Below are positions 8,478 through 54,238 of a stretch of DNA of 64,000 nucleotides, one piece after another; the stretch's first letter is position 1, and each line of letters opens with the position of its first letter. The stretch lies in the sequence record MK373792.1. One strand, 5' to 3'. The translations under genes and the position numbers were made by a program. The notes beneath the pieces were generated by a model. The model worked only from the letters and a program-made list of their open reading frames with translations. It was not told the DNA's origin and ran no database searches. The DNA is from Escherichia phage vB_EcoS_VAH1.

Positions 8478-8489
8478 ATGATGTATAAT
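8461..8489 (+). promoter_or_regulatory. sigma70-like promoter P1 (TTGGCA-17-TATAAT)
   Basis: TTGGCA at 8461-8466, TATAAT at 8484-8489. Shares the 20-mer GTATAATATATACATAAATT with P2. Confidence 0.4.
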
Positions 8490-8562
8490 ATATACATAAA
8501 TTTGAGAGAGAGAAAGTTTCGGATTGATAAGAAAGTCCGAAGCAGAAAAATAAAAATTTTAG

Positions 8563-8592
8563 TTGCTAAATTCTCTCGAAATCTAGTATAAT
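8563..8592 (+). promoter_or_regulatory. sigma70-like promoter P2 (TTGCTA-18-TATAAT)
   Basis: TTGCTA at 8563-8568, TATAAT at 8587-8592. Second copy of the 20-mer containing the -10 element. Confidence 0.4.
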
Positions 8593-8976
8593 ATATACAT
8601 AAATTCGAGGAGAAAACAAAAATTAAATTCTTCGATTATGAAAAGCTATACTTACTAGCTAGAGGAAATTCCGACTTAATTATTAAGTTATTCAAAAGAA
8701 TGCTTACAGAGCCTGATGCTCACCAATTATTGGTCGGTTCCTCATTCATTTTGAATGAATCAACAATAGTTGATAATCAAAATAAATTGTCTAATAGACA
8801 ACTGGCAGAATATCTAGGAATTTTAAGTCTACGAAATTATGCCGAATACAAGTTTACAAACGATCCTAGTTTGGACATACAATATGTTCCAGTATGGATA
8901 CCTCGTTTAGTAATCGACACTAACCCACTAATCGCAATTAACAAATCGAAATTAATCTTTAAAGAGGAAATAAAAT

Positions 8977-15075: not shown

Positions 15076-15116
15076 GAAAAAACCCCAGTGGATTTTGTCC
15101 ACTGGGGTTTCTTTTT
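15076..15116. terminator. bidirectional Rho-independent terminator between convergent early and late transcription units
   Basis: A-run, CCCCAGTGGA-TTTTG-TCCACTGGGG hairpin, T-run. Confidence 0.7.
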
Positions 15117-18100: not shown

Positions 18101-18168
18101 TTACTTGCAGTTATACTATTCTGGTCCATAGTGACCATTTGCTGTAAAATTATTTTAGTTATAGCCAT
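15118..18168 (-). CDS. L-shaped tail fibre protein with C-terminal intramolecular chaperone (peptidase S74-like)
   Basis: 1016 aa; N-terminal low-complexity A/S/T/E/K repeats; C-terminal ...GYTYTLKENG...SDLKKQIADL resembles the auto-cleaving chaperone of phage fibres. Confidence 0.8.
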   Translation of the reverse strand: MAITKIILQQMVTMDQNSITASKYPKYTIVLGSTISSITAGELVSAIESSKASAAAAKQSEINAKQSELNAKDSENEAEISAASSQQSATQSASSATASANSAKAAKTSETNAKASETAAKTSETKAKASETAAKTSETNANSSKTAAAASASAAKTSETNASASAAAAKTSETNANNSKNAAANSANAAKASETNAKTSETNAAASATKAENVASGMKASIGLGDSPRDCPDISGNPSNFLGFLRIYETATGFPSIAVGETVLTGFISGTDGVPSFAGLFVGSSTKAIYSYRWRPESGPLWTKNARIDDVNRLVQLSSETQLLNPGNNAKIIITSGKLWGAYDIENRSYIPLAVGQGGTGGRSISEAKNNLQIPSIGGGEWVTLNAPAGVEDGKYYPVIIDLAYRSLYASGAFIDIKTRSSTGNDPMNCCSFNGFIRCGGWSDRKDGGYGYFNNYARSEIAMKCILSSSKDAERYVAIYIEARGFPVQLRVPAFCEVTVPTSNFTYKNTTYAWGTANPATDSTDVLTMFDFSLNRIGFYQATTEGNYYIGNGERIVLSNGMNVGDELSLYAPKITFSGTIAAGNGVIADGISVSNATFYSRYRVGDTIYGAEFRASENAGQVIVRDPAGINHQFFNFNKEGTFSAPSGILSSTGVDWNTQHNTVNKFYGIAGQVNTPENNVVYGGIHVGFSGNYATQFAGRGSKFWARSIDGGTIGAWNRLITDKFADFGVPVSITKAGEALSIRLTGTDTSQVGYLACRTDSGRLWYVGKGGAAKDVIIHNDMNSSTLTVSDNITLRTPNYNGGIFADGSAVVVRRGNGRTFSYENNQTAAKSATILLWGNTTGRPSVVECKLSDGYLFYAQQSSDGSRVFNVNGKVEATNITQSSDRDLKDNIEEIQNATESLRKMKGYTYTLKENGLPYAGVIAQEVMEALPEAVSGFTKYTDLEGPTLTGEQLVGEERFYSVDYAAITGLLVQAGRESDSRISALESEVSDLKKQIADLTLVVNSLLANKV
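17500..17930 (-). repeat. in-frame tandem nonapeptide-encoding repeats (AAKTSETNA-like) inside the tail fibre gene
   Basis: About 10 imperfect 27-bp units visible on the plus strand as GCATTAGTTTCTGATGTTTTAGC-like repeats. Confidence 0.6.
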
Positions 18169-20698: not shown

Positions 20699-23548
20699 TT
20701 AAATAGTAGCCCAACTAACAGATTGTTCTCCGCTTTCTCCTTCAGCCCGTATTCTAAATCGTAATTTACGATTGATACCTAGAGCACTTGAGTTCAGCAA
20801 AGCAAAATCCGCCTTATTATATGTTAATAGGTAATCATAAGTATAGACATCTTCTATTCTAACACTACGAAGCATTCTATCTTGAGAATCATAAATTTCC
20901 AGAGTATAATAGATTTCAGGAATTATCTCCTCCTCTGGAATCTTATCCCAGGCAAGTTTGACATCTGGACCAACAAATTCAGTCACATCTCCTGAAGCAG
21001 TATTAACAACTCTAAAGTTACTAACTACACTTAAGTTCTTAGCTGAATTAAGGTCTACAGATAGTGTAACTGGGGAACTACGTCTACCATTAATATCTAC
21101 TGCGCGTAGCTCAAAAATAGCTAAACCAGCAGGCTCTCCTATAATCTCCTGAACCATTCTTTCATTAGGATTATTTTCCAGTTGTTGAACTATATAGGGA
21201 TCAACATGTCCAGAATGTGCAATAGAATAGTATACTACGTTATTTGTAAGACTAGGAAGCCAGGATAACTCACCATTCTTACCTATAGCACCAACTACGC
21301 CACCTGGAGTAGGGGTGTATTTAAAATCTCTAGGAGGTAGAACATTATTACTAATATCAGGAATATCATTACCACTATTATCTACCTGTTCTGAATTAAT
21401 AAATACATCTTCCCCATACTCTTGGAGAACTAGATTAATTTTACCATCACGAGTATTTTCTACTTCGTCAACCAGGAAGAATTTGTCCTTCCAGCCATAA
21501 CGTTCGTATGTGAAAGCAATAGGATCGTTAGGTTCTATACCTATAAATTTATATGGTACAGAAAAACTTAAAGTACGGGAGTATCTAGATTTCTTAAGTT
21601 CTCTATCTGCGTAACTCCTAGCGGTGTAGTAGTTAGTAATATTTGCAAAAGATAGCTGAAGTTTTTTGTCCAAACCCTTATCTTGTTCTTTAAACTTAGA
21701 GTTATAGAACGTAATAGAGTTTGTTTTCCAGCTTAGTGCAGGGTCTACTAGAGATGCTTGTACTGAGTTAAACTTATTTCTACCAGTAGTATCAGATAAG
21801 TCTAAGTCCCCATAAGTATCTAGAAAACTTATCTTCAAAGGAGTTGTAGAATGTTTTTCTACTGTTATTCTATACTCACCTGATAGGTTATTTATAGCTC
21901 CGCCAAAAGAATCCAGTACTCCTTGAACATTTTTAAATACTGATTCGGAGGTATCTAATATAGTGTTTAACTGAACTACTTGGCGGTGTTCAGAGATAGA
22001 ATCACTCCAACCAACATATCTCCAATATGGTTGCCAGCTAACCTGATAAGATTCATCAATTATATCTAGAATTTTTGCTTCTGATATAATCTTTTGTAGT
22101 GGGAACTGATCTAGAGTTATATTAGCTCCATAACGTTCAGAGGTTAGATAGTCCATAAGCTGCCAGATACCGTTAAGGCTAGTTTTATCAGCTTTAACAG
22201 ACCCATCAGAACTATATACTTTGACTTTCTTACCTTGTACTTCAGCACTAATTTCTGGAATTTCAGTTCTATTCTCATTAATAGTAAATCTAACTACAGC
22301 GTAGGCTGTGTCTAAGAGCTTATAACGAGAATCCCAGTATTCTGGTCCATTGCCGTTTTGATTCTGTAAATAGAAACCTTTTCTTTTAGCAATATCCACT
22401 AATACTTGAGCTGCTGTCTGGTCTGGTTTGCCATGAAAGGTCCATATTCTTATGTCACCATTACCATCATTATACTTATACTCCTGACCATGAACAGAAG
22501 GTTGAGAAGTGCTTGTACCCGCAGCTAATCTATGCATTGTATCACCCACTAGTTTCTTACGACCGAAGCAGGTTCTAGCATTGGAATCCGTTTCATCGAA
22601 ACAGATCATTGGGCTGTCCCCAATATAGAAATCTAGGAATCCGTCAATTTCTCCTTCCGAAAAAGCATAGACTACATACACTATATTAGGGTTATTTAGC
22701 TCAGTATCTGCAAAAATAGGGATACCAGGAATTTTCTGAACTCCATATACAACAGGTATAAATTTAGCAGCTAAGTTAAAGTCTAAGTCAACTTCTTTAG
22801 TTACAGTCTCATAATACTTTTTAAGACTGTAACTTCTTGATAGACCAAAGAGTTTCTTCTTGGACTGAAGTTTATAACGCTCTTCTTTTACTTGATACTT
22901 AGCTAAGATAGTGGTACTTTTATTAGAGTGGAAGAATCCATAGTCTTCTTGGTATTCAGGACGTTTAGCCCCATTAGAAGGCTGTAATTGCCCATTAACA
23001 ACTTCAAGTCCTCGATGAGAAGCATCATCGGTATAACGACCATTCACCCTATCAAAGTCATAGAACTGGTTGGAACAGTTCCATGTGATAACAGAGGTTC
23101 CTATCCCTGAAGTAGTAACATTATCTTTTATTCCGCCTCCGGTAATTCTACCGCGGAAGAATAATAAAGGCCCGTCTGTACTAGGATCTACGGGAAGAAT
23201 ATTTCCTTCTTCATCAATTATCGCTTGGTGTATAGTAATAGTTCTATCTAAGAAAGATACCCCATTTTGAACTAGTTTTAACACTTCATCTTCTGCTGTA
23301 CCAGTTATTGTAAAAGATAAGCTACCAATAGATAGTTGACGGTTCTGCTTATGGGAGCTTATACTTTTTACTTTACCTGATCTGTACAAAATACCATTAT
23401 ATGTAACATCTCTAAAATAGTCTGTCAGGTAGATATAAGTAGCAGCAGAGCCAGATGAACTAGGAAGTTCTAAAGCTATAAGACAAGCTGTTTTTAGCTT
23501 GTCATGAGTATTAAGGTATGTTTTAGCACTATCGAGTATCTGCTTCAT
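20699..23548 (-). CDS. baseplate hub protein (T5 pb3-like)
   Basis: 949-aa ORF immediately downstream of the Dit-like gene in the tail operon. Confidence 0.65.
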   Translation of the reverse strand: MKQILDSAKTYLNTHDKLKTACLIALELPSSSGSAATYIYLTDYFRDVTYNGILYRSGKVKSISSHKQNRQLSIGSLSFTITGTAEDEVLKLVQNGVSFLDRTITIHQAIIDEEGNILPVDPSTDGPLLFFRGRITGGGIKDNVTTSGIGTSVITWNCSNQFYDFDRVNGRYTDDASHRGLEVVNGQLQPSNGAKRPEYQEDYGFFHSNKSTTILAKYQVKEERYKLQSKKKLFGLSRSYSLKKYYETVTKEVDLDFNLAAKFIPVVYGVQKIPGIPIFADTELNNPNIVYVVYAFSEGEIDGFLDFYIGDSPMICFDETDSNARTCFGRKKLVGDTMHRLAAGTSTSQPSVHGQEYKYNDGNGDIRIWTFHGKPDQTAAQVLVDIAKRKGFYLQNQNGNGPEYWDSRYKLLDTAYAVVRFTINENRTEIPEISAEVQGKKVKVYSSDGSVKADKTSLNGIWQLMDYLTSERYGANITLDQFPLQKIISEAKILDIIDESYQVSWQPYWRYVGWSDSISEHRQVVQLNTILDTSESVFKNVQGVLDSFGGAINNLSGEYRITVEKHSTTPLKISFLDTYGDLDLSDTTGRNKFNSVQASLVDPALSWKTNSITFYNSKFKEQDKGLDKKLQLSFANITNYYTARSYADRELKKSRYSRTLSFSVPYKFIGIEPNDPIAFTYERYGWKDKFFLVDEVENTRDGKINLVLQEYGEDVFINSEQVDNSGNDIPDISNNVLPPRDFKYTPTPGGVVGAIGKNGELSWLPSLTNNVVYYSIAHSGHVDPYIVQQLENNPNERMVQEIIGEPAGLAIFELRAVDINGRRSSPVTLSVDLNSAKNLSVVSNFRVVNTASGDVTEFVGPDVKLAWDKIPEEEIIPEIYYTLEIYDSQDRMLRSVRIEDVYTYDYLLTYNKADFALLNSSALGINRKLRFRIRAEGESGEQSVSWATI

Positions 23549-24159
23549 AGACTTTCCCTCAAGGAAAGTGAAATACCAGAATAAGTACCATTGTTATTTA
23601 GGGTAGAACCGAAGGAATCTCCGTTCATTAGCTTAGTTCTAAATAAGATACCGTTAAAAACTGGTTTTTCACTACCCGTAGTAGTAATAAATAGATCAGG
23701 ATACAGGGAAATATTCCATACGTTTCCTGAACTACTAAAATTTGTTATTTTATAAACTTTAGGATGATTAGATAACTTAAATAAATCCCCAGCTTTTGGC
23801 TGCCCAGCTAATGTTCCATTAGTATTTAGTATAATTTGAGAACCTTTTTGACCGGCAGGTATGGTAACACTCTTAGTATCACCACGTACTCTAAATGCTT
23901 CATACTGAGGCAGGAGTACATCTAAATAATCTCCAGTTCTTTTATATTCTAAAAGCCTAGAGTCTAGAAATGCATATTCATCCGGGAAAAGTTCCGGGTA
24001 TGAGATATTAATTCCCCAGTATTGAGCAGATATTTTAACCTCTTTGACTTTACCATTAGGTAATTCATCACGAATCATAGGGTCGTTATCTACTAAATTG
24101 ACGCTTTCAAAACCTAACCCTGGGTACTCTGGGTTCGTGTATGGATCTGGTAGTCTCAT
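23545..24159 (-). CDS. distal tail protein (Dit-like)
   Basis: 204-aa ORF directly after the tape measure gene; conserved siphophage order TMP-Dit-hub. Confidence 0.6.
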   Translation of the reverse strand: MRLPDPYTNPEYPGLGFESVNLVDNDPMIRDELPNGKVKEVKISAQYWGINISYPELFPDEYAFLDSRLLEYKRTGDYLDVLLPQYEAFRVRGDTKSVTIPAGQKGSQIILNTNGTLAGQPKAGDLFKLSNHPKVYKITNFSSSGNVWNISLYPDLFITTTGSEKPVFNGILFRTKLMNGDSFGSTLNNNGTYSGISLSLRESL

Positions 24160-24228
24160 AGTTAATTTCTCCTCTTTAATAACAATATTATAATAGTATT
24201 GGAAAATTTTATCAAGAAATTTTTATTT

Positions 24229-24262
24229 TTCCATAAAGAAAAGGAGGACATAAAGTCCTCCT
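24229..24262 (-). terminator. Rho-independent terminator after the tape measure gene
   Basis: On the minus strand: GGAGGAC-TTTAT-GTCCTCC hairpin followed by TTTTCTTTATGG. Confidence 0.6.
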
Positions 24263-24268
24263 CCAATA

Positions 24269-27200
24269 TTAAGAATTACCAAGAGATTTCAGGGTGGTTC
24301 CATTCTCATTAAGAGCCAGTTCCACGGCATCTCTGAAAGCAGTACTATTATTCGATGCAAAATCTCTGAAGCTTGCTGCATCCATAGTGCTGATATTCAG
24401 GATAATAGGTCTACCAGAAGAGGACCTTGATCCTTCGGAAAGCTGATCATTAGGCGTAGCTTTCATAGGAACCATAGGAGTAATTACCTCGGTACCGTGC
24501 TCACCCATTTGATAGCTTACTCCAGGATACATCATACCGCCTTCCGCACGTGGAACAAAGGAGTTAGCATTACCGATACCTTTATCACCACGTAGATAGG
24601 ATAATTCTCCTGAGCTAGCCTGCATAGATACATCAACGTTCTTCTGTCGTTCACCTAGGGTTAAATACTGAGTAGTATCTGCTCCAGAGTCAGCGATAGA
24701 AGACATACCAGATGCGGAAGATGCCTGAGCAAGAGCTAGTGCACCTGCCAAACCTGCCGCCACCATTAGAGGAATAGAGAACGGATATGGTACAGCTGTT
24801 GCTGCTTGCATTACTGCTACTGCTGTCTGAATGATAATCTGTTTCTTAGCTGCATCCTGTTGAATTTTAAGCTTTTCAGCTTCTAATTTCTTCAGTTTAG
24901 CTTTAGATGCCTCAGATTTACCATCACGCTTCTGTTCTGCGGCAATAGCCTGATCAATTGCACTAACCTGCTGACTAGTACTGTATTGAATCATAGAAGC
25001 CACAGTTTGCATACCAGAAGCAATCATAGACGTAGTATCTAAAGATCCCTGAGAGAATTGAATCATAGCATTAGTTAAATTACCCATGCTTTGAGCCACA
25101 GCGGTTGCTTCGGAATTTAATTCAGATAACTTAGAGATCGCCTGGTCATAAGAAGCCATTCTATTTTGCATATCAGCAAAATCTTTATCTTCTCCGATTA
25201 ACCCAGTAGTAGGAGTATAAGTAGCCCCAACAGAAGATCCTACCTGTTGCTGCATTTGACTTTCTCTCTGCTTTCTGAGTTGCTCTAGAGCAGCAACAGT
25301 TTTATAAATCTCATTACGATACTTAAGCTCTTCTTCCGTATTACCCTTAGATAGTTCCAGCTGTTGCTGCAGAATGGATAGTCTTTCCGTAAGAATTTGG
25401 GATTGGCCAGTAACATTTCTTTGTGTTTGGCTGACTTCTAGTGCATCCATGAGAGCTGATACATGTGAGGCAGTTGCTTGTTTTTCTGCTTCCCATAGCT
25501 CTCTGCTTATTTGTGCTTGCGCACGTCTAGACTGTTCCGCCTCTTTTTGTTTATCTGCCTGTTTTGTATACCATTCGTACTTCTCTTTCTCTATAGTTAG
25601 TTCTAGTTTTAGCTGAGCTAATCTATATTGAGTAGTAGTCATAGTACGGTCATTCAGAAGAGCTATCTCACGATCTACACCAAGAATTTTATCTGTGTAA
25701 TCCTTAACCTTCTTCTGAGCTTCCATACCCTGATTGGTAAGTTTAAGTTTCTCCAGCTGAATTTTTTCAATTTCTTTCTCAACAGCTTTATTTCCCTGGT
25801 TTGTTTGAAGAACACGTCGTAAAGCAGCTTCTTGCTCTTCTAACTGTTGCAACTCTAAACGTCTACCAGCTTCCTGAGCTTTTTCCTTATCCTTAGTTTG
25901 ATTATACACATCAGCTATTTTCTGTTGAACTGCTAACTGATTTTTAGTTTCATTACCAGTTAGTTTAACATACTCAGATAGAGCCTGAGAAGCAGTTTTC
26001 ATCTCAGATAACGTATTATAGCCTAAGTTAAGATTTTTAACGTACTCATCAGCACTTTTACCTGTTCCTATAGATAGGGACTCTATATTTTTTATAACAG
26101 CTACTAAAGTAGCGCTAGTTTTAGCCGCGGTATCTGTACTCTGAGCAACGTTCTGCATATCATTAGCTAAGTCACCAGCTGTTTTCTTAGTTTGATTATA
26201 CGCTTTCTGTTCTTCGGTTAGTCCTTTTAGTACTGCAGAGTTAAAATCATATACAGCACCAGGATCAGTAGTATCCCTATGTAGGTTAATCTGTTTTTGG
26301 AATTCTGGGTTAGCTTTTGCAGCGGCAGCACCCGCAGCTTGATAGGCTGACTTCCAAGCATTAAGGTTTTCAGTAGAGTCATCAACTTCTTTGCTTAACC
26401 TTGCTATCTGTAGTCCCATAGCTGCGGTTTCCTCTACGAACTTTTTATTAGCTTCGGAAGAACCTATGCGCATCCCTCCTACTTCAAATCCCCCAGCAGC
26501 TAACCCAACAGGCATTCCCTCACCCACCAACCTAATAGCGGCGGCAGTACTAGCGTCTGCTTGGGACATTCGTTTATCGAACTCAGATTTTAGCTTATTA
26601 CGCTTATCAAGGGATTCCCTATACATATCTAGAGCTTTATTATACCCTTCTTCAGAAGCGGCTAAACTTAAAGCAACAGCACCAACGTTGGTAGGATCTA
26701 TCTGTCTATTAGTCTTTTCTTGGGCTCTAGCTGCTTCAGCAGATACAGAAGCCTGAGAAGTATAGAATACCGTATTGATGGCATCGATTACTGGTCCTAA
26801 ATACTTAGCAGCAGCCTGCTGAATCTTTCTCAGTGCGGCATCAGCATTAGCGGCAAATTGCTCCCATGGAGTAGCTCGCAGAACTTCATCTAGATACCCA
26901 AAACGTCTGGTAGATTCTGCTATAACAGCATTGGCATACGCCTGCTGTTTCTGGAAAGTAGTAAGACTATTAATGTTATAAGTTATACCTGTGTTAGCAG
27001 CATTTAGCTGTTTAACATAGTCAGCATATGCGTCATTAAGACGAATAGTAACACCAAGTTCATCCAGAAGTTCTATTTCCTGTTTTGATACACCCTTGAT
27101 TACACGATTAAGCGCATCAGTCATATCAACACCAAGAACAGCAGCAGCACGACGAGCTACTAGACCAAATTTATTAAGTTGTTCAGCATCAAATCCGTAC

Positions 27201-27976
27201 GCAGAAGCAGAGGATGCTTGTCTCATTGCTTCTTCAAAGGAGATAGCATATCCGGCAGCTTCTTGTAGTGATCTAGCAAGAGACTGAACAGGAGTACCCG
27301 TCTGAGTACCTACTATAACACCAAATTTTTCTAGACGATTTAGCTGATCACCTAACTTAAGTTGCTCGAATGCAGATTGCAAAACGAAGATGTTGGAAGC
27401 AAGAGCTGCATACATAATAGGTAAACTACCACCGATCTTAGCCATTGCTGCAAAATCACGGGTAGCCCCACGTGCCGAACCAGAAGTATTACCAATAGCT
27501 CTAGAAGCTCTACCAGCGGCACTAGCAGTATCATTAAAACCTCTAGCTGTACCACCTAAAACTCTATTGGTGTCATACAATCTATCTTGAACTTTCTCTG
27601 TTGCAGCTGCAACATCATTACCCATTGCTTTAACAGATCTAGAAACTCCATCGAATCCAATTTCTAGTTTATCTGTTACTTCAATAAGTTGGATAGCCAG
27701 GTAATCTAGCTTATCACCAATACCATCAATGGATTTAGTGATACCAGCCATACCCCTACTAGCCTGCATTTTAGTAAGACTTCTTGCTGCTCTATCTGCT
27801 GCCCTCTCAATGGAGTATAGAGTTTTGGGCATTTTACCTAACTGTTCGTTTGTTAGTTCAGAAGCAGCAGCAGCGTTCTCTAATGCATCAGCTACGTTTT
27901 CAATAGACTTTGCAGTACGGGTTGCCCCCTTCTGTTTAACGTCTATTAATAATTCTCGTATTAGCTTATCAGTCAT
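24269..27976 (-). CDS. tail tape measure protein
   Basis: 1235 aa, largely alpha-helical/coiled-coil with hydrophobic segments, in the tail operon. Confidence 0.9.
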   Translation of the reverse strand: MTDKLIRELLIDVKQKGATRTAKSIENVADALENAAAASELTNEQLGKMPKTLYSIERAADRAARSLTKMQASRGMAGITKSIDGIGDKLDYLAIQLIEVTDKLEIGFDGVSRSVKAMGNDVAAATEKVQDRLYDTNRVLGGTARGFNDTASAAGRASRAIGNTSGSARGATRDFAAMAKIGGSLPIMYAALASNIFVLQSAFEQLKLGDQLNRLEKFGVIVGTQTGTPVQSLARSLQEAAGYAISFEEAMRQASSASAYGFDAEQLNKFGLVARRAAAVLGVDMTDALNRVIKGVSKQEIELLDELGVTIRLNDAYADYVKQLNAANTGITYNINSLTTFQKQQAYANAVIAESTRRFGYLDEVLRATPWEQFAANADAALRKIQQAAAKYLGPVIDAINTVFYTSQASVSAEAARAQEKTNRQIDPTNVGAVALSLAASEEGYNKALDMYRESLDKRNKLKSEFDKRMSQADASTAAAIRLVGEGMPVGLAAGGFEVGGMRIGSSEANKKFVEETAAMGLQIARLSKEVDDSTENLNAWKSAYQAAGAAAAKANPEFQKQINLHRDTTDPGAVYDFNSAVLKGLTEEQKAYNQTKKTAGDLANDMQNVAQSTDTAAKTSATLVAVIKNIESLSIGTGKSADEYVKNLNLGYNTLSEMKTASQALSEYVKLTGNETKNQLAVQQKIADVYNQTKDKEKAQEAGRRLELQQLEEQEAALRRVLQTNQGNKAVEKEIEKIQLEKLKLTNQGMEAQKKVKDYTDKILGVDREIALLNDRTMTTTQYRLAQLKLELTIEKEKYEWYTKQADKQKEAEQSRRAQAQISRELWEAEKQATASHVSALMDALEVSQTQRNVTGQSQILTERLSILQQQLELSKGNTEEELKYRNEIYKTVAALEQLRKQRESQMQQQVGSSVGATYTPTTGLIGEDKDFADMQNRMASYDQAISKLSELNSEATAVAQSMGNLTNAMIQFSQGSLDTTSMIASGMQTVASMIQYSTSQQVSAIDQAIAAEQKRDGKSEASKAKLKKLEAEKLKIQQDAAKKQIIIQTAVAVMQAATAVPYPFSIPLMVAAGLAGALALAQASSASGMSSIADSGADTTQYLTLGERQKNVDVSMQASSGELSYLRGDKGIGNANSFVPRAEGGMMYPGVSYQMGEHGTEVITPMVPMKATPNDQLSEGSRSSSGRPIILNISTMDAASFRDFASNNSTAFRDAVELALNENGTTLKSLGNS

Positions 27977-27988
27977 ATTTTATTTTTC

Positions 27989-28024
27989 CCAATAAAAAAG
28001 GCTCTGGGCAAATCACCCAGAGCC
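27989..28024 (-). terminator. hairpin plus T-run element immediately upstream of the tape measure start codon
   Basis: On the minus strand: GGCTCTGGG-TGATTTG-CCCAGAGCC then TTTTTTATTGGGAAAAATAAAAT-ATG. Confidence 0.5.
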
Positions 28025-28059
28025 AAGCCTCATCGTGGAACGCCCATTGGAGGAAACTT

Positions 28060-28428
28060 TTACCGTGCTCGAGATTTGGCGTGCGGCTTAACGTTAGGTA
28101 TTCTACCGTTTTGCGGCTTATGCTTCTCAGCACGTTTACGTGCAGCGTCTACAGCTTTAGCATCAAATATATTGATGATGTGTAGAACAAATTCTTTTTC
28201 TATAGGATCGGTAATCCCATAAATATCGAATAAAACACCTAAAGCAGCTTTGTCTTTACCTATAAATATAGGAAAGTCGCCAGGTATGAAACAGTCAACT
28301 AGACTATTATAAATATTCATACTAATAGCTACAATAGGTGGAAAATCTTCAAGTTCAACAGGCATAGCCTTAGGATCAGGTTCTATACCCATTGATTCAC
28401 AAAGTATTAAATATTGTTGTTTAGTCAT
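28060..28428 (-). CDS. putative tail assembly chaperone
   Basis: Small ORF directly upstream of the tape measure gene; assignment by position only. Confidence 0.4.
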   Translation of the reverse strand: MTKQQYLILCESMGIEPDPKAMPVELEDFPPIVAISMNIYNSLVDCFIPGDFPIFIGKDKAALGVLFDIYGITDPIEKEFVLHIINIFDAKAVDAARKRAEKHKPQNGRIPNVKPHAKSRAR

Positions 28429-28489
28429 TTTAGATGCTGAGCTTTTAATACACTTATCTGCAAAATCAGCAACAGCATCTAGTAATTCT

Positions 28490-28894
28490 TTACGCTTTTG
28501 AGCTACGAAAAGTGTCTAAATGGAACACTGTCTGGTTGATCCAAGAATCAAACGCAGCAGAGTTCTGCATAAGCATTACAGCATTATCACGACTAAATGG
28601 AACTTCAGTAGCAGGATCAGCATCTGTTTCAATCAGCATCAGTTTTTCAACGTCACCTACAGTCAAACCAGTCCAACCTTTAATCGCAGCATCAACGAAA
28701 GCTTCAATAAACTTATCATCATCTTGTACCTGAATCAAAGTACCATTAACCCACTCGTCACGCTTAGCAGAGGTGATAACTCGTTTAGAAGTAGCACGAG
28801 ACATATAATTAAGCTCTAGCTTAAAGTTCGGCATACCTGGGTATGAAAGAGTGACAGTACGAGTTTCTAGAGTAATATCTTTTAAGTTAATCAT
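28490..28894 (-). CDS. putative tail assembly chaperone
   Basis: Small ORF upstream of the tape measure gene; assignment by position only. Confidence 0.4.
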   Translation of the reverse strand: MINLKDITLETRTVTLSYPGMPNFKLELNYMSRATSKRVITSAKRDEWVNGTLIQVQDDDKFIEAFVDAAIKGWTGLTVGDVEKLMLIETDADPATEVPFSRDNAVMLMQNSAAFDSWINQTVFHLDTFRSSKA

Positions 28895-29790
28895 TATTTT
28901 CTTTCTCCAAAGAAGTTTATTTCTACAGGATCTGAATCAGCAGTAGGAATTACATCATACTCTACCTGATACAAATCTGAGAAGTTTAGGCGTTTTGAAA
29001 TACGTGCTAAAGGGAATGTTATAGAAACATACTTATTTTTAATAATTAGTGGAGTTCTTGTTTCAGGGTCTAGATTCAAGAACTTATCTCCTACCAATCT
29101 CTTAACGTAATAGAAAGCTAGTGTTGCGGAAGCATTCATTTCATTGACATAAGCTCGTTTATTAGTATAAACTTTGTTTATATCAAATATACTTCTATCT
29201 TCTCTCCAAGAACATTGTTGTTGGAAGGACATAGATGCTGAAATTAATGCCGGCAGCGGCGCGCTATTAGTATACACAGCTGGAGGACTATACGGAAGTA
29301 CTTCACCTTGTGTAATTGTATATCCATCACGGAAAGTAGATACTTCAGAGAATTTTCCAGACTCAATACCAACATTTAGAATTGGTACACTCTTATCTAG
29401 AGAAAAATCAACTGTTGATACATAACAGTTTTCGAAATAAATACAGCTATTATTATAATTAATAATATACATATTGAACATAATAGGTTCAATATTAGGA
29501 GTATTTCTTGGCAAAAATAAAGAATTTCCCTCACGCGTGAATCCCATCCAATCAAAGAAATTAGACTCAATAAGCGTAGTACTGAAATTTATTGCCAATG
29601 AAATAGATGAAGGATCTTGAGCATTAATAATAGAGTCTGCATAGTTAGTACGATTATGGATAGTACGTCTAAGAGTCTTAAACTCTTGAAAAGACGTACT
29701 AGCATCATAGTTAGAGAGGGCATCGAAATGATACCCCCTACCATCGTACTCAATAACTATTTTAGACTCTCGCATGAGAGAATAAAACAT
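28894..29790 (-). CDS. tail protein
   Basis: 298-aa ORF between the tail tube and chaperone genes. Confidence 0.45.
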   Translation of the reverse strand: MFYSLMRESKIVIEYDGRGYHFDALSNYDASTSFQEFKTLRRTIHNRTNYADSIINAQDPSSISLAINFSTTLIESNFFDWMGFTREGNSLFLPRNTPNIEPIMFNMYIINYNNSCIYFENCYVSTVDFSLDKSVPILNVGIESGKFSEVSTFRDGYTITQGEVLPYSPPAVYTNSAPLPALISASMSFQQQCSWREDRSIFDINKVYTNKRAYVNEMNASATLAFYYVKRLVGDKFLNLDPETRTPLIIKNKYVSITFPLARISKRLNFSDLYQVEYDVIPTADSDPVEINFFGERK

Positions 29791-29794
29791 TTAA

Positions 29795-31186
29795 TTAACC
29801 ACCTGTTACAGTAATCTGTTTAGTACCTTTAACTCCAGAACCATCTTTAGCAGTAGCTTCTACAGTTACTGCACCAGTTTTACTAGCATGTGCTGTTAAT
29901 AGTCCTGTTGCACTGATAGTAGCTGCATCGCCAGCAGTAATAGCCCAGGTAACATCCTTATTCCTTGCGGAAGAAGGAGTAACTTCAACGCTCATCTGAA
30001 GAGTTTGTCCAGTCCGAACAGAAGTAGCATCACCGGCAGATTTAACAGTAATTGCGGTTACAGCATCAATAGCACCATCACCATTAACAATCAAATTATT
30101 AATAGTTGTTTTGGTATATTTACTAGAGAAGCCCAAGTAACCCTCATCACCAGCATCCAGATCTGACGGAATAGCCTTAAATTCTACCGAAGTACCAAGT
30201 ACATCATCAGTCTCAATAGTAGGAATATTAACGTGTGCCTGTTTAGCTACCAGAATAGCGGCAGGACGTTCATCATCGTATTCACCACCAAGTACCAGAG
30301 CGATTTCGAAGCGGTTAACTACTTTCAGAGTTTTGATAAGATCTTTATACAGTTCCATAGAACCAAGAGATTTATCATTCAGATAGGCAGTTAATGAACC
30401 AGTTAATTCAAAAGCACCAGTAAAGGAACCAATTGGAATAGTAACACGGGACATTACATTAGGTGTTAGGTAAGTAATGTTGTTGTTAATAGTAAAAGTA
30501 CCACCGGTAATTGGTATGTCATAAGACTTATTGGTATCCATATCCTTGATCTTCAAGACGGTTAGTTTGTTCTTAATGTAAGAACCCTGGATAGTCATAT
30601 AAGTTTCATCATCAATACCTATTTCATCCGGATCAAATGGTTGCTCATCCAGCGGGATTAACTGGTTACCATTACCAGACCAAGTTACACGACCAATATC
30701 TTCGATATCAACGTTAACTTCTGCCTGATTAATCTGACAGGAATCAATATAACTCCATGCTTTATCAGTCAGAATATAAATATGTAACATTGCTAACTCA
30801 TGATAGGAGTTATCTTTGAAGTTAACCATGAAGTTAGTTGCGTTATTGTGTGCCCCTGTATTACCTTCTAAGTTAATAGCTTTACCACTAGAAAGTGCAT
30901 GCCATAACATATAGTCAGGAACAATTTGTTTGCTAGTAGTTTTATCTTTATACGGTAGGATGTAAGTAGAGAAACTCCACTCAGCTGCGTTTAAAGAATC
31001 GTTAAAACGTTTAGAACCACGAGTTGGACGCGGACCAGCTTCATTAACAGTAATATCTGTTGAGTTACTGTCCTGACCCCAAGAAATATCATCCTGAACT
31101 AGAATCTCTTGCGTGTTGGTCTTATTATGACCAGTCTTAACCGTAGACACGAAGATTCGAGTATTACGTAATAGTTGTAAAGACAT
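29795..31186 (-). CDS. major tail tube protein with C-terminal Ig-like (Big_2-like) domain
   Basis: 463 aa; C-terminal ...VKSAGDATSVRTGQTLQMSVEVTPSSARNKDVTWAI...VTVEATAKDGSGVKGTKQITV is a typical bacterial Ig-like domain. Confidence 0.8.
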   Translation of the reverse strand: MSLQLLRNTRIFVSTVKTGHNKTNTQEILVQDDISWGQDSNSTDITVNEAGPRPTRGSKRFNDSLNAAEWSFSTYILPYKDKTTSKQIVPDYMLWHALSSGKAINLEGNTGAHNNATNFMVNFKDNSYHELAMLHIYILTDKAWSYIDSCQINQAEVNVDIEDIGRVTWSGNGNQLIPLDEQPFDPDEIGIDDETYMTIQGSYIKNKLTVLKIKDMDTNKSYDIPITGGTFTINNNITYLTPNVMSRVTIPIGSFTGAFELTGSLTAYLNDKSLGSMELYKDLIKTLKVVNRFEIALVLGGEYDDERPAAILVAKQAHVNIPTIETDDVLGTSVEFKAIPSDLDAGDEGYLGFSSKYTKTTINNLIVNGDGAIDAVTAITVKSAGDATSVRTGQTLQMSVEVTPSSARNKDVTWAITAGDAATISATGLLTAHASKTGAVTVEATAKDGSGVKGTKQITVTGG

Positions 31187-31212
31187 TTAATTATTTTCTC
31201 CTAATCTGTAAC

Positions 31213-31698
31213 TTATCTGCGAAGTGACCTACGTGGAGGCTGATACCTCACTGTTACATTTATTTCTGCTAAACCATATGGGGCCAGTAGACCCTCATCT
31301 GTACTAACTGATGTAATGATCATATCAGTTACCTCACATGGGAAGGTCGATCCATTAGGTTTACTAACAGTATATTCTAAATTTCCACCTGTGTCAATAA
31401 CGGTTTTTATATCCGCTACGAGTTTTTCAAGTTGCTCTTGAATGTCTGTTTTCTCTTTATCGTACACCAGGATTGGAAGTTCTAAAAACATCCACTGTTG
31501 GCCTGAAGGAAGATACTGCCCAGTTTCAGTTCCGATATGAACTGCTACATAAGGAAACTCTCGTATTTCCTCAAATTTATAAGTTTGACGAGAAACGTTT
31601 CCATATAGGTTATTAAAATATTCGTCAGGTTGAGAACCATCCATTTGTTTAGAGATTCGGTCAACCATAGCTTGTGCAATACTTGTTCTATGGTCCAT
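31213..31698 (-). CDS. putative tail terminator protein
   Basis: 161-aa ORF immediately upstream of the tail tube gene. Confidence 0.5.
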   Translation of the reverse strand: MDHRTSIAQAMVDRISKQMDGSQPDEYFNNLYGNVSRQTYKFEEIREFPYVAVHIGTETGQYLPSGQQWMFLELPILVYDKEKTDIQEQLEKLVADIKTVIDTGGNLEYTVSKPNGSTFPCEVTDMIITSVSTDEGLLAPYGLAEINVTVRYQPPRRSLRR

Positions 31699-31701
31699 TT
31701 A

Positions 31702-32469
31702 CTAGGTTCCTTGATTAACCTTAATTTTATATCTGGAGTGAATTAGGTCTCTTGCAGCTTTTGCTATAGCCTCACCAATAAGTTTTTGTGGGTTTCTAGC
31801 GCCAGGATAAGGTCGTAGGGATAATCTTCTGTATGTAGATACTGCCGGATTGAACACAGAATATGGACGAGTCATATAATTATATGTTACGTTTAGTTCA
31901 GGAGAGCCTTTACTAGTTTCAGAATCACGAAGCATAACATCTTTAATTTTTAAAGAGTTTGCAAAGCGACCGGTTCTAAACTTTAATGGTGCTCCAGCTT
32001 TTTTCATATCCTTTATTAAGTATTCTTTAGCAACTATCTCTAGTATAATCTTCATATTGCTGTTAGACACGAAACGTCCAGAAGCACCTGTTACTGCACC
32101 AGAATATCCATCTTCAACATCACTAGGATCACCAAAGTTTACCTGCACTCTACCAGTAGAACGTTTTTTACCTACTGAGGATTTTTTACCAGCGGTTGCT
32201 TGTATTAGATTCTCCAGAGCACCTAAATCTCCAGAAAGATCTAAACTAGAGGATACAGCTTTTAATATAGAAGCTGTTCTAATATTAAGGAGATCTTGTG
32301 ATACAGGTTTTGAAAACTTAAAAGATACTTGAGCAACAGTACCATCTCGGGTAGGATCTTTTAACCCTGTTTCAACAGAATATACAACGGTATTCTTATT
32401 GTTTTCAGATCGGCTTGCAGTATCTAGCTGCTCTTTAATAATTTGTCTAGCTAGATCAGAAAGAGACAT
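31702..32469 (-). CDS. putative head-tail joining / tail completion protein
   Basis: Position between the head and tail modules. Confidence 0.4.
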   Translation of the reverse strand: MSLSDLARQIIKEQLDTASRSENNKNTVVYSVETGLKDPTRDGTVAQVSFKFSKPVSQDLLNIRTASILKAVSSSLDLSGDLGALENLIQATAGKKSSVGKKRSTGRVQVNFGDPSDVEDGYSGAVTGASGRFVSNSNMKIILEIVAKEYLIKDMKKAGAPLKFRTGRFANSLKIKDVMLRDSETSKGSPELNVTYNYMTRPYSVFNPAVSTYRRLSLRPYPGARNPQKLIGEAIAKAARDLIHSRYKIKVNQGT

Positions 32470-32981
32470 TATACTCTCCTATATACTTCAATAATAGTAC
32501 GAATATGCTCTGGAATACCAGATTTAGTGTTATTGAAGGTTACTGTTTCACCACCAATTGTTCTAGCTTGGCGATAATCTTGTTTGTGCCAATGATCTAC
32601 TAGCATACATGCTGCAAGTTTGAGATCTTCAGGAATTGGGTTAAATCCACCTTGTGTGTACTCTACATCCATATAACCTTCTGGAGGACTAAATTTAAGA
32701 AGTATAACCCCATCAGAGTATAACTTATACTGTTCGGGATCTATCTCCTTATCATTAATAGTCATTTTGGTTACTGAAGTAGCTGAGGGAGAACTTAAAA
32801 AATATTTTTTTCTAGTAGGTTTTGTATTGATTAACTGGTCTACCGCATCAGCATCATCCATACCTAAAAGGCTAGTAATCAGCGCATTGGCAGCAGTAAT
32901 CATCATCTCTACTCCAGATTCTAGTTCAGGTCGTTTTAACCCGCCGTATAATCTATAGTCTTCAGCTGTGATTATTTGCAT
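32469..32981 (-). CDS. putative head completion protein
   Basis: Position immediately after the major capsid terminator. Confidence 0.4.
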   Translation of the reverse strand: MQIITAEDYRLYGGLKRPELESGVEMMITAANALITSLLGMDDADAVDQLINTKPTRKKYFLSSPSATSVTKMTINDKEIDPEQYKLYSDGVILLKFSPPEGYMDVEYTQGGFNPIPEDLKLAACMLVDHWHKQDYRQARTIGGETVTFNNTKSGIPEHIRTIIEVYRRV

Positions 32982-32988
32982 TTATTTT

Positions 32989-33022
32989 TCCCAATAAAAA
33001 AGGAGAGCCGAAGCTCTCCTTA
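32989..33022 (-). terminator. Rho-independent terminator after the major capsid protein gene
   Basis: On the minus strand: AGGAGAGC-TTCG-GCTCTCCT then TTTTTTATTGGG. Confidence 0.65.
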
Positions 33023-33040
33023 TCGGCTGAAAAGCCTGTA

Positions 33041-34417
33041 TTAAACGGAAGCGTAAGCACCAGATACAACGCCATTATTAAAGTAACGTTGCAGGTTAAC
33101 ACGCTGAGTAACGTAGTATGCGTCACGCTGTTTACCAGCTTGGCGCTCACGTTCAACAGTAACAGCACGCTGACGTGGCATTACGAAGTTATCTTTATAA
33201 ACAATAACTGCGAACTCTTTATCAGCCGCTTTAGCTGGGAAGTACTCAGAAACTACAACCGGCAGACCGTAAATACGACCAACTTGACCTTGCAGTTTAA
33301 CAGCATCATTACCAACCTGGGAAACATCCTGCCATTCTTCATCTTCCAGCAGATCGTAGTAAGCATCCATAGATACAATCAGTACCAGTTTGCTTAGCTT
33401 CAGACCATGACGGCCCAGTTTACGACGCAGTTTAGAGATAGTTTTAGCAGTTACCAGAACAGAACCATCAGCTTTAGCTTCGGTAGTAACTTTAGCACTA
33501 TCTTCACTAGCAAGAGTCAGCAGACCTTTCGGTTTACCAGAACCATCACCAGTCATGAAAGCTTCTTCGATAGAAACAGCATGTGCTTCAATCAGACGCT
33601 TACGCAGCAGCGGCAGCAGGGAGAAGATTGCATCTTCTTCAGTTTCATCAGTAATAAAGGACTTAGCAGCCAGTTTATAGGTCTTAAACTGGATTTCTTT
33701 AAGAGCGCCTTTAACTTCGTTACCAGTAGTTGTATCATTACCATAAGTAGAAGCATCTACCCAAGTAGCTTTACCAGCTTCTGGTTCAACCAGCATAGTA
33801 AGAATCTTACTGGACATCGGCAGTTCTTCGAACAGTGCACCAACTACCAGCTCTTTCTGCAGGTCACGAATGATACGCTGAGAGAAGATAGTTTCATAGC
33901 TTTCACTAGAAACTTCTACAGAAGAAGAGTTATTTACTGCCTTAAGATGATTCTGACCGTGTTCGGTTTCGAATACACCTTTTTCCATTACGTAAGACAA
34001 CAGAACCAGTTTTTCTACTTCATCTTCAAAGTTTTCCTGAGTACCATACAGTGCTTTAGCTACGCTATCACCGACGAAGGAACGACCTTCACGAGCTGTC
34101 AGCAGGGATTTGATTTCATCCTGAAGACCAACAATAGTTTCCTGCTGTTTTTCTACGGTTTGTGCAAACAGTTCTGCACTCTTCTTAGATTTCTCATCCA
34201 GCGACTTAACCAGTTCCAGAGCCTCTTCCAGACGCTTACGGTCTTCGCCAACTGCTTTAGAAACCAGGTCATTCATACGAGCCAGTTCTTTTTCTTCCTG
34301 CTCTTTACGCATACGTTCAGCTTCCTGAGCTTTCTGAGCAGCGGTCAGACCTTCCAGAGATTTAGCCAGATCACCCAGACCAAGTTCTTCTTTCAGCTTA
34401 TTAATATCAATAGTCAT
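33041..34417 (-). CDS. major capsid protein (HK97-fold)
   Basis: 458 aa; follows the protease gene, followed by a strong terminator; optimal codon usage; N-terminal coiled-coil scaffold-like delta domain. Confidence 0.9.
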   Translation of the reverse strand: MTIDINKLKEELGLGDLAKSLEGLTAAQKAQEAERMRKEQEEKELARMNDLVSKAVGEDRKRLEEALELVKSLDEKSKKSAELFAQTVEKQQETIVGLQDEIKSLLTAREGRSFVGDSVAKALYGTQENFEDEVEKLVLLSYVMEKGVFETEHGQNHLKAVNNSSSVEVSSESYETIFSQRIIRDLQKELVVGALFEELPMSSKILTMLVEPEAGKATWVDASTYGNDTTTGNEVKGALKEIQFKTYKLAAKSFITDETEEDAIFSLLPLLRKRLIEAHAVSIEEAFMTGDGSGKPKGLLTLASEDSAKVTTEAKADGSVLVTAKTISKLRRKLGRHGLKLSKLVLIVSMDAYYDLLEDEEWQDVSQVGNDAVKLQGQVGRIYGLPVVVSEYFPAKAADKEFAVIVYKDNFVMPRQRAVTVERERQAGKQRDAYYVTQRVNLQRYFNNGVVSGAYASV

Positions 34418-37327: not shown

Positions 37328-37840
37328 TTATTTACCGCGGGAAATAGAGTAAATTCCATAGCGCAGCGCATCACAAAGGTGAGAGTTAGCATCATGACGT
37401 GGTTTTTCACGTGATAATTTCTCTTCACCTTCTTGGAAATCCCACTTATAGTTCTGCAATGCATGGATTAGTGAGGAACATGAAGCATCTACAATAATCT
37501 TGCCCTGCTGGAATAGCGCTTGCAAGCATGCTAGACCATCTAGGACAGATTTTTTAGCTGGAGCTGATGCAATTTCGTGCTCGTAAGCTAAGTCCTGGCG
37601 GAACTGAGCGGCGGCAGAGTCAACAAAAATACGATCAACTTTATAACGATCTATACAGTGCTGAATATAAGCAGCATGCTGAGCTGTAGTTTTTTCAGCC
37701 TGCTGGTATTCTTCTAACACGTAGTAGGTATCCGTATCGTAATGATATTTAATAGTAAGAACTGCTGTAGGATCACGATAACCAACGTCAATACCAAGCA
37801 ACGTTTCGAATGCTTCATCATCTTTAAAGAAGTGACGCAT
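37328..37840 (-). CDS. terminase large subunit, C-terminal nuclease domain (frame open up to about 37941)
   Basis: Terminase nuclease region. The frame continues upstream as NYFRQEYEADFSVFEGQIFDTFNAIDHV... to a stop adjacent to the frameshift site. Confidence 0.8.
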   Translation of the reverse strand: MRHFFKDDEAFETLLGIDVGYRDPTAVLTIKYHYDTDTYYVLEEYQQAEKTTAQHAAYIQHCIDRYKVDRIFVDSAAAQFRQDLAYEHEIASAPAKKSVLDGLACLQALFQQGKIIVDASCSSLIHALQNYKWDFQEGEEKLSREKPRHDANSHLCDALRYGIYSISRGK

Positions 37841-38643
37841 ACCTTTGAGATCTTTAACATGATCAATAGCATTAAAGGTATCAAAGATCTGGCCTTCGAA
37901 TACAGAGAAGTCAGCCTCGTATTCTTGGCGGAAGTAGTTTTACTAACTGTACGACGTGCTTCCTCAATGTCATTCAGGTCAGCACGTGGGTTATCACGAT
38001 ATGTACCATGAATAGATACCCAGTTAGGCAACGTATCATCAAATCCGTAGGCGTAAAATTCTTTAAACCAGTTACCCCCACGAGGGGTGGAAATAAATAG
38101 AGCTTTAGAATTAGGTTTATCTAGAGTAGGACGCAGCTGAACCCTGAAGGCATCACCACCCACATCGGAAATTGCCGCCTCGTCAAAGATGATAAAATCA
38201 TATGAACGTCCAACTGCGGAGTCAGCCTGAGCCGCGGAAGCTAGTTTAAATAGAGAACCATTAGCTAACTCAATCTCTTTATCTTTAGCGTTTTCACGTT
38301 CGGTTTGTAGGCCATACTTCTTAATAAGACCACGAATCTGAGACCATCCGATATTGGCCAGTGAGTAGTTAGGGGCAACTACTAGCACCTTCACATTAGG
38401 TTCCAGCAATTTTAGGAACCCAAGTGTATACGCTATAAAAGATTTACCTACACGGCGTGATACACACGCCGTTACAAAACGATGTCTAGGGTCTTCTAGC
38501 GCATTGATAATTGCTATTTGAGGGCCGTTAGGTGTAATACCCTCTTGTGCTAGTATTCCGGAAACGGGTAAACGAAAGAAACGCTTATCTATTCCGAAAT
38601 CAATAACATCTACTGTATTAACATAAGGTCTTGATACTTCCAT
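37714..38643 (-). CDS. terminase large subunit, N-terminal ATPase domain (frameshifted gene)
   Basis: Walker A-like SRRVGKS and Walker B YDFIIFDEAA. After ...DIEEARRTVSK the frame turns into low-complexity garbage. Confidence 0.85.
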   Translation of the reverse strand: MEVSRPYVNTVDVIDFGIDKRFFRLPVSGILAQEGITPNGPQIAIINALEDPRHRFVTACVSRRVGKSFIAYTLGFLKLLEPNVKVLVVAPNYSLANIGWSQIRGLIKKYGLQTERENAKDKEIELANGSLFKLASAAQADSAVGRSYDFIIFDEAAISDVGGDAFRVQLRPTLDKPNSKALFISTPRGGNWFKEFYAYGFDDTLPNWVSIHGTYRDNPRADLNDIEEARRTVSKTTSAKNTRLTSLYSKARSLIPLMLLIMLKISKVCVTSLKMMKHSKRCLVLTLVIVILQQFLLLNIITIRIPTTC

Positions 38644-51789: not shown

Positions 51790-51814
51790 CTTAAATAACA
51801 GTGTTTCTCACTTC

Positions 51815-51980: not shown

Positions 51981-51999
51981 ATCATTCGCATTCAGGCGA

Positions 52000-52017: not shown

Positions 52018-52022
52018 GCTTT

Positions 52023-54236: not shown

Positions 54237-54238
54237 TG

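Follow-up and report, generated by a model that had tools for sequence, protein, structure and literature searches.

In the late region of the DNA analysed here, a stretch of 64,000 nucleotides (nt) from Escherichia phage vB_EcoS_VAH1 (record MK373792.1; hereafter the window), three minus-strand hairpins are each followed by nearly the same A/T-rich 20-mer. They stand behind the tape-measure gene (site 1), behind the second of two tail-assembly-chaperone-like genes (site 2) and behind the major capsid gene (site 3). Does the repeated tail represent a single regulatory element, or does one run of bases take part in different signals at different places? A preliminary description of this DNA had favoured a single conserved element, combining a terminator or attenuator with a translation-initiation or late-promoter function. 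The analysis leads to another answer. The 20-mer is a composite, made of the U-rich tract of a terminator followed by a weak ribosome-binding site (RBS) at sites 2 and 3, or by the A-tract of the late promoter PG25 at site 1. Ordinary terminators, two weak RBSs and PG25 with its A-tract quite probably explain both the hairpins and the 20-mer.

The phage is T5-like (Tequintavirus), and the region is its late (virion) operon. Positions 24000-33200 match 548 phage records, 431 of them over at least 80% of the length and with a top whole-region identity of 95%; they belong to T5-like phages of Salmonella and Escherichia (Demerecviridae, Tequintavirus). At the DNA level, many T5-like phages are 90-95% identical, and the minus-strand gene order is that of T5, BF23 and HASG4. 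The identities of the tape-measure and head-completion genes are consistent with the BF23 and HASG4 annotations. The tape-measure protein begins with MTDKL, as in the T5 record, which cites N-terminal sequencing for pb2, and the head-completion start codon is taken from the alignment, where M1 is invariant.

Behind each hairpin stands (A)TT/ATGG(G)AAAAATAAA. An exact 23-mer, CCTTTTTTATTGGGAAAAATAAA, is common to sites 2 and 3, and site 1 is an 83% match to it (repeat family D11); exact GGAAAAATAAA occurs at the three sites and nowhere else in the 64 kb. As previously described, the motif runs straight into two start codons: the junctions read ...GGGAAAAATAAAAT-ATG at the tape-measure gene (ATG at 27976) and ...GGGAAAAATAA-ATG at the head-completion gene (ATG at 32981). 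The consensus string first proposed for the motif literally fits none of the copies, each requiring 3 mismatches; at that tolerance it retrieves exactly these three sites in the window, where 0.01 would be expected by chance, and no further copies are found elsewhere in it. A genome-wide search, proposed at the outset as a check, speaks against a widespread element. Among 2.9 million viral contigs (IMG/VR), the exact 20-mer is found once or twice per T5-like genome, and BF23 1-40 kb holds no further copies, its ten other annotated terminators included. Outside the T5-likes, a shorter 17-mer mostly falls in gene-junction or coding sequence without a hairpin.

For comparison, the homologous junctions were examined in 29 close relatives (IMG/VR; a repeat of the related-loci search with alignment gave the same 29 loci) and in the phages Roth37 (Klebsiella), DU_PP_V and My1 (Pectobacterium), KKP_3711 (Enterobacter), PR1 (Providencia), Stubb (Proteus), and phi 3 and D124 (Vibrio). 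In a terminator scan, the three hairpins are the top minus-strand terminator-like sites within the late operon, the only other strong site being a bidirectional terminator at 15077-15113. All three are on the coding strand, 4-36 nt past a stop codon, with stems of 10, 11 and 9 pairs including 5-7 GC pairs, loops of 5, 3-5 and 4 nt, and a U-rich tract that begins 0-2 nt past the stem (Table 1). Folded with short flanks, sites 1, 2 and 3 reach -18.6, -24.6 and -20.7 kcal/mol, respectively, and 0, 0 and 2 of 200 shuffled sequences fold as well (z-scores -3.1 to -5.1). The pairing is preserved by compensatory substitutions across the family. Across 8-9 lineages, terminator 3 shows double compensatory changes at 4 of 9 pairs (nine lineages), and in terminator 2 both sides have changed at 5 of 9 and at 7 of 12 pairs. 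The U-tract of terminator 3 is identical in nearly all enterobacterial Demerecviridae examined. In addition, HASG4, BF23 and PR1 already carry annotations of predicted Rho-independent terminators at the sites of terminators 1 and 2, and HASG4 and BF23 a terminator annotation at the site homologous to terminator 3. From their structure and conservation, the three hairpins are predicted to be Rho-independent terminators punctuating the late operon, in agreement with the terminator part of the preliminary description. A literature search for T5 transcript-end data or a T5 transcriptome paper found neither.

It may also be imagined that the hairpins act mainly in RNA processing or stability, protecting the 3′ ends of the capsid and chaperone mRNAs once an endonuclease, for instance RNase E, has cut in the AU-rich tail. 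Stable hairpins followed by single-stranded A/U-rich RNA would suit such a role, as would a second small conserved hairpin upstream of terminator 3, and differential stability would give the same stoichiometric outcome. Such a function as the main one is nevertheless improbable, because a canonical 8-10 nt U-rich tract placed 0-2 nt past a GC-rich stem is the signature of intrinsic termination, and because no other part varies so little across the family as the U-tract. The stabilising and terminating roles are, moreover, not exclusive. The small hairpin, GGCU-UUUC-AGCC in the window, has GGCA/UGCC in KKP_3711 and PR1, where both sides of a pair have changed; it is absent from the Vibrio phages.

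What follows the U-tract differs between the sites. At sites 2 and 3, the sequence GGGA lies 10 nt (tape measure) or 7 nt (head completion) ahead of the ATG, and pairs in both cases with the anti-Shine-Dalgarno (anti-SD) sequence at -4.2 kcal/mol. Among the 21 late genes scored, whose values range from +0.9 to -11.6 kcal/mol, these duplexes rank with the weak ones. The earlier statement that no classical SD precedes these genes was thus half right, since a weak GGGA is present at the canonical distance. On these features, the two sites can be read as a degenerate SD (GGGA) with an A-rich spacer, abutting the TTTTTTATT tail of the terminator.

Comparison of the lineages carries this reading. 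At the capsid/head-completion and chaperone/tape-measure junctions, all lineages show the same succession of hairpin, T-tract, purine block, short A/T spacer and ATG. Ahead of the head-completion gene, the purine block is GGGA in the T5-likes and PR1, GGGT in Roth37, Stubb and KKP_3711, AGAGG in DU_PP_V, TGGAG in My1, GGAGG in phi 3 and AGGAGG in D124. Ahead of the tape-measure gene it is GGGA, GGA, TGAGG, AGGTG or AGGAG depending on the lineage. Since relatives carry canonical SDs at the very position of GGGA, the latter is to be regarded as an SD remnant serving as RBS. The depositors of the Stubb genome indeed label these blocks ribosome_binding_site (GGGT at head completion). Furthermore, close relatives place the GGGA of site 2 anywhere between 7 and 11 nt ahead of the ATG, a latitude that fits an RBS and not a promoter.

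Initiation regions with a weak SD and A/U-rich surroundings can be recognised with the help of ribosomal protein S1, as Boni et al. (1991) and Komarova et al. (2005) are reported to have described. Sites 2 and 3 resemble such regions by their 3-4 nt SD remnant at the right spacing, preceded by an unstructured U-run and followed by an A-run. They differ in that the U-rich 'enhancer' would here double as the U-tract of a terminator; by this resemblance, S1 may have a role at these sites.

Several other ways in which sites 2 and 3 might work were considered and rejected. A hexamer scan that finds PG25 and the other late promoter, PJ5, at 11/12 finds no sigma-70-like hexamer pair of at least 9/12 at either site, and any transcription start from a promoter placed there would fall inside the gene. 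The late-promoter function once proposed thus fails at sites 2 and 3, where translation initiation holds. A promoter at site 2 derived by hand alignment to PG25 has CTGATA and, among the codons of the tape-measure gene, a poor -10; sites 1 and 2 are 75% similar over 36 nt (family D20) because of the T-D-K codons. A T4-type late promoter is not found either: the motif reads GGGAAAAATAAA, and TATAAATA, the T4 box at -10, is absent at all three sites. As to RNA structure, the AU hairpin TTTATT-GGGAAA-AATAAA would reach only -1.5 to -3 kcal/mol. A cis-acting anti-SD sequestering the RBS in read-through RNA (CUUUUC..CCGAUAA at site 3, UUUCCUCCAAU at site 2) is hinted at by the fold of a short window; in the full intergenic region, the upstream bases make a small hairpin of their own. 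In 15 lineage-by-site tests the anti-SD duplexes are no better than shuffles (fraction at least as good 0.05-0.98), and RNAalifold does not support them. An attenuator or riboswitch is likewise ruled against: no Rfam match with E below 0.6 is obtained, RNAalifold recovers the terminator stems only, and the complementarity between upstream bases and the RBS is at the level of shuffles.

Site 1 has another organisation. In all lineages, the hairpin and T-tract of this third junction are followed by an A-rich tract, then by a good -35/-10 pair and finally by a strong SD. In the window, two A-blocks (AAAAA-T-AAAAA-TTT), at about -38 to -51, precede the -35 hexamer of PG25, a promoter of the T5 set from the Bujard laboratory. 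The T5 record AY692264 (GenBank) holds a feature 'promoter P-G 25', which spans this stretch and starts inside the motif. From the hairpin through TTTTCTTTATGGAAAAATAAAAATTTC and TTGATA-17-TATAAT to AAAGAGGAGAAATTAACT-ATG, site 1 is identical to T5 base for base. In T5, transcripts from PG25 and PJ5 have been detected by primer extension from 30 min after infection (Klimuk et al. 2020, PMC7472727). Because site 1 has the sequence of T5 and PG25 has been mapped there in vivo, site 1 is the known late promoter PG25. Sites 2 and 3 have the A-run alone in common with it, the promoter core being missing from both.

The A-blocks at site 1 may contribute to this promoter. An UP element is an A/T-rich tract at about -40 to -60 of sigma-70 promoters, bound by the C-terminal domain of the alpha subunit of RNA polymerase, as Ross et al. 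(1993) and Estrem et al. (1998) are reported to have established. The position of the A-blocks at site 1 agrees with such a role, and the other strong promoters of the window also bear A-blocks just upstream of the -35. A near-identical tract, AGAAAAATAAAAATTTTAG, precedes TTGCTA-18-TATAAT at 8544-8592 (plus strand), an unrelated promoter placed at 8563. For PG25 the UP element is a putative one, and at sites 2 and 3 the A-run, unlike an UP element, serves no promoter. In the T5 promoters, the UP element, the -10 and the -35 are marked in the legend of Fig. S5 of Klimuk et al. 2020 (PMC7472727). Judged from position and composition, the 5′ half of the motif at site 1 would thus belong to the U-tract of terminator 1 and its 3′ half to an UP-like tract of PG25. 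We also observed that the plus-strand promoter just mentioned is the second of two tandem near-duplicates at 8461-8609 (TTGGCA-17-TATAAT and TTGCTA-18-TATAAT; family D8), with a hairpin lacking a T-tract between them; the AGAAAAATAAAAATTT tract of PG25 recurs in this second promoter. Downstream of PG25, the distal-tail leader ATTAAAGAGGAGAAATTAACTATG (24157-24180, minus strand) seems identical to the 'RBSII' sequence of the pQE/pDS expression vectors. If this match is true, that widely used RBS comes from the T5 PG25 transcript.

Taken together, these data bear on the proposal that the 20-mer is one dedicated element of regulation with the same role at the three places, whether as a late-promoter site, as an activator site or as a combined attenuator. 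That a near-identical sequence follows the three terminators of the late operon and is absent from the rest of the window would fit such an element, and so would the fact that the restriction of T5 late promoters to late times has no known mechanism (PMC7472727). But the downstream contexts differ: the A-run of site 1 is the upstream part of PG25, with a strong SD of its own after it, whereas sites 2 and 3 give way at once to a start codon, lack a hexamer pair and would place a transcription start within a gene. The other validated late promoter, PJ5, does not carry the motif. In relatives, ordinary SDs take the place of the motif at sites 2 and 3 and different A-tracts do so at site 1, and T5, a viable phage, splits the motif at site 2. 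The proposal is already largely refuted, and we hold it to be highly improbable.

Table 1. Signals and genes around the three junctions of the late operon (positions in the window)
Feature	Position	Strand	Remarks
Terminator 3 hairpin AAGGAGAGC-UUCG-GCUCUCCUU	33000-33021	-	9 pairs, cUUCGg loop; after capsid stop 33041
Terminator 3 U-tract TTTTTTATT	32993-33001	-	from sequence
Small hairpin GGCU-UUUC-AGCC	33025-33036	-	between capsid stop and terminator 3; in minimum-free-energy folds of most enterobacterial lineages
Head-completion weak RBS: GGGA (32992-32989) and spacer AAAATAA	32982-32992	-	ATG 32981
Terminator 2 hairpin GGCUCUGGGU-GAUUU-GCCCAGAGCC	28000-28024	-	11 pairs; after stop 28060 of second chaperone-like gene
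Terminator 2 U-tract TTTTTTATT	27991-27999	-	from sequence
Tape-measure weak RBS: GGGA (27990-27987) and spacer AAAATAAAAT	27977-27990	-	ATG 27976
Terminator 1 hairpin GGAGGAGGAC-UUUAU-GUCCUCC..	24240-24264	-	10 pairs; after tape-measure stop 24269; scan and folding
Terminator 1 U-tract TTTTCTTTAT	24233-24242	-	terminator scan
A/T-rich tract GGAAAAATAAAAATTT	24217-24232	-	directly upstream of PG25 -35 hexamer, about -37 to -52
PG25 core TTGATA-17 nt-TATAAT	24187-24215	-	11/12 consensus positions
Strong SD AAGAGGAG of distal-tail gene	~24169-24176	-	-9.1 kcal/mol duplex; ATG 24159
Major capsid gene	33041-34417	-	stop at 33041
Head-completion gene	32469-32981	-	ATG 32981
Tail completion, tail terminator, tail tube and baseplate tube genes	between head completion and chaperones, in this order	-	
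Two tail-assembly-chaperone-like genes	28490-28894 and 28060-28428	-	stop of second gene 28060
Tape-measure gene	24269-27976	-	ATG 27976, stop 24269
Distal-tail-protein gene	23545-24159	-	ATG 24159

How would the composite signals act together? PJ5 (31397-31369; 11/12 consensus) is located inside the tail-terminator gene, and no promoter is found between terminator 3 and PJ5, nor between terminators 2 and 1. Since essential genes lie beyond terminators 3 and 2 without an intervening promoter, these two terminators must be leaky. In the mechanism that we propose, most RNA polymerases would stop at terminators 3 and 2, yielding plentiful capsid mRNA and tail-tube/chaperone mRNA. Only read-through polymerases would reach the tape-measure gene on the one hand, and the head-completion gene and its two followers on the other. 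The read-through cistrons would then be translated from weak SDs, with the single-stranded U/A-rich flank probably helping through S1-type recognition. Leaky terminators combined with weak SDs would result in low amounts of low-copy virion proteins, while the capsid and tail-tube genes would be served by their place upstream of the terminators or downstream of PJ5. Finally, terminator 1, followed at once by PG25, would reset the transcription level for the baseplate and fibre genes. The idea of a control of structural-protein stoichiometry, already put forward in the preliminary description, is in this respect reasonable, because leaky terminators precede essential genes.

The closest analogue would be T-phi of phage T7, an intrinsic and incompletely efficient terminator located directly behind the major capsid gene 10. 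In both systems, a leaky terminator would follow the most-needed structural gene and the downstream genes would be expressed at a lower level via read-through. There are, however, differences. T7 has its own RNA polymerase, whereas the T5-type operon uses that of the host. The T5-type operon has three such terminators together with internal sigma-70 restarts (PJ5 and PG25), and the RBS of the next gene begins here right after the U-tract.

Several observations weigh against terminators, weak RBSs and PG25 as the whole explanation. Site 1 retains GGAAAAATAAA though no RBS is needed there, and the 23-nt identity of sites 2 and 3 exceeds what a terminator tail and a weak RBS would be expected to need. 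In PR1, the 41-nt hairpin-plus-motif is 100% identical to that of the window, although protein identity in the flanking genes falls to 57% (capsid) and 31% (head completion). More generally, in the enterobacterial lineages the intergenic modules have 74-84% nucleotide identity to the window, as compared with 46-81% for the adjacent 90 nt of coding DNA. The exact 20-mer is also present in an unrelated 42.6-kb siphophage, directly before its tape-measure gene. Lastly, we infer termination, leakiness and RBS strength at these sites from sequence features.

In the siphophage (L043 9509-9531 and L074 3124-3146; IMG/VR 3300032255_000005 and 3300032254_000181), a different hairpin is followed by exact TTTTTTATTGGGAAAAATAAATG, leading into a gene for a 639-aa tape-measure protein, whose nearest relatives are those of Pseudoalteromonas phages (27-32% identity). 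Since a handful of chance hits is expected by a rough estimate in a collection of that size, the match is possibly coincidental.

Such strict conservation could mean that hairpin and tail form a sequence-specific RNA or DNA site for a phage or host factor that keeps the output of two genes, tape measure and head completion, in step. Such a factor might for instance act as a translational repressor or as an antiterminator, or might be a dimer that binds the inverted repeat TTTATT-N6-AATAAA. The primary sequence is indeed near-invariant, GGAGAGCTTCGGCTCTCCTTTTTTATT being common to seven enterobacterial genera; the identity in PR1 and the better conservation of the intergenic regions than of the flanking coding DNA point in the same direction, and each of the three tails is an AT-only inverted repeat. 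As a structure, however, the AU hairpin is negligible and does not clearly beat shuffles. Distant members of the family drop the A-rich half and yet keep terminator and SD, no candidate factor is known, no Rfam family corresponds, and recombination at module boundaries could also give the conservation. A specific factor is on balance unlikely. The same small chance is given to a more definite version, in which the hairpin and TTTTTTATTGGGAAAAATAA would make up a cassette through which a factor of the T5 family or of the host sets read-through, translation or both for the two lowest-copy assembly proteins. Were it true, the cassette would explain the cross-genus sequence identity, the 23-nt identity of the two sites and the 20-mer of the siphophage.

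Exchange between genomes has then to be considered for itself. In such a model, the intergenic modules would be recombination linkers, that is, mosaic boundaries or insertion hotspots, whose identity results from exchange and not from regulatory selection. The 41-mer of PR1, unchanged between two diverged genes, might be taken in this sense. Two of the close relatives (L020 and L022) join a different capsid 3′ end to the same hairpin, and extra genes have been inserted exactly at site 2 in T5 and at the same place in the Vibrio phages. On the other hand, genuine compensatory evolution in hairpin 2 indicates long vertical descent under structural selection, and the modules are short (about 40 nt). 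This explanation, which we consider quite improbable, would also account for conservation and not for function, and is compatible with the composite of terminators, RBSs and PG25.

The T5 insertion informs on the composite in its own right. A gene of about 0.8 kb is inserted directly after TTTTTTATT at site 2, and pb2 is preceded by CAGGAAAACATTAG-ATG; as T5 is viable, the two halves of the motif are physically separable. The inserted gene, T5p137 (250 aa; L003 17735-18486 in T5 st0, AY692264, equivalent to about 27990 of the window), encodes a CapR-homology domain (E = 2e-24) and a treble-clef zinc-finger domain. This domain content suggests a mobile endonuclease-like gene; the start annotated for it lies upstream of the terminator and seems to be misplaced. 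The Vibrio phages (phi 3 and D124) likewise carry an extra gene at the tape-measure junction, without a Pfam hit.

If the sites are composites, how did they become so similar? All three copies start with the standard terminator tail of the family, TTTTTTATT. At site 3, the lineages can be arranged in a series from GGAGGTAA (phi 3) to GGAGTAAA (My1), GGGTAAAAT (Roth37, Stubb) and GGGAAAAAT; at site 2, from TTGGAAAAA (DU_PP_V, Roth37, PR1) to TTGGGAAAAA. These series suggest short evolutionary paths to similar copies. Because the ancestors were already similar, the 23-nt identity needs one or two steps only. Recent variants alter one site alone (L005, L020, L027), so that there is no sign of concerted evolution.

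Other features of the window were noticed. Between the stop codon of the second chaperone-like gene (28060) and terminator 2, a non-coding block, UUUCCUCCAAUGGGCGUUCCACGAUGAGG (28028-28056, minus strand), is kept at the nucleotide level in Roth37, My1, KKP_3711, PR1, Stubb and DU_PP_V, and partly in phi 3 and D124. It includes an anti-SD-like CCUCC. Neither a supported structure nor an Rfam hit was found for this block, and a coding potential is ruled out by frame-shifting indels of 1-3 nt between lineages. From its position and conservation, it could be the body of a small RNA derived from the 3′ untranslated region and ending at terminator 2.

The bidirectional terminator at 15077-15113, with a 16-pair stem and T-runs on either strand, is the meeting point of the minus-strand late operon and of converging plus-strand genes. 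Tandem repeats with a 21-nt period (17532-18012; families D1 and D2) are found inside open reading frame (ORF) 15118-18168, a homologue of the L-shaped tail fibre; the array implies, at the level of translated sequence, a heptad-like repeated peptide near the N-terminus of the fibre. The TerL gene (37328-38643, minus strand) is broken at about 37938 into two overlapping ORFs of 309 and 170 aa by a 1-nt deletion in a run of five T relative to T5, where TerL is a single ORF of 438 aa. As the two halves are 99.5% identical to the T5 protein, the split is probably a sequencing error, or else the genome is defective. Finally, about ten copies of a 14-22 nt repeat, (A/G)TGTGC(A/G)AATCCGA(C/T), occupy 52022-54976 (plus strand), with AT-rich repeat families nearby (51808-51993); this repeat field looks non-coding (families D3, D4, D5, D9 and D13).

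The components brought together here, namely the T5 late terminators, PG25 with its A-tract and two weak RBSs, are of an ordinary kind and, in essence, were known before. For annotation, GGGA should be read as an RBS and the A-run of site 1 as part of PG25. Because T5 itself has one, insertions directly after TTTTTTATT are tolerated, which is useful for the engineering of T5-like phages. If the strict conservation of the modules does reflect a specific factor, it could bear on the unsolved question of late-expression control in T5. As for the phages themselves, a T5-type phage would split its long late operon into expression levels by means of host-type signals, namely leaky terminators, internal sigma-70 promoters and graded RBSs.

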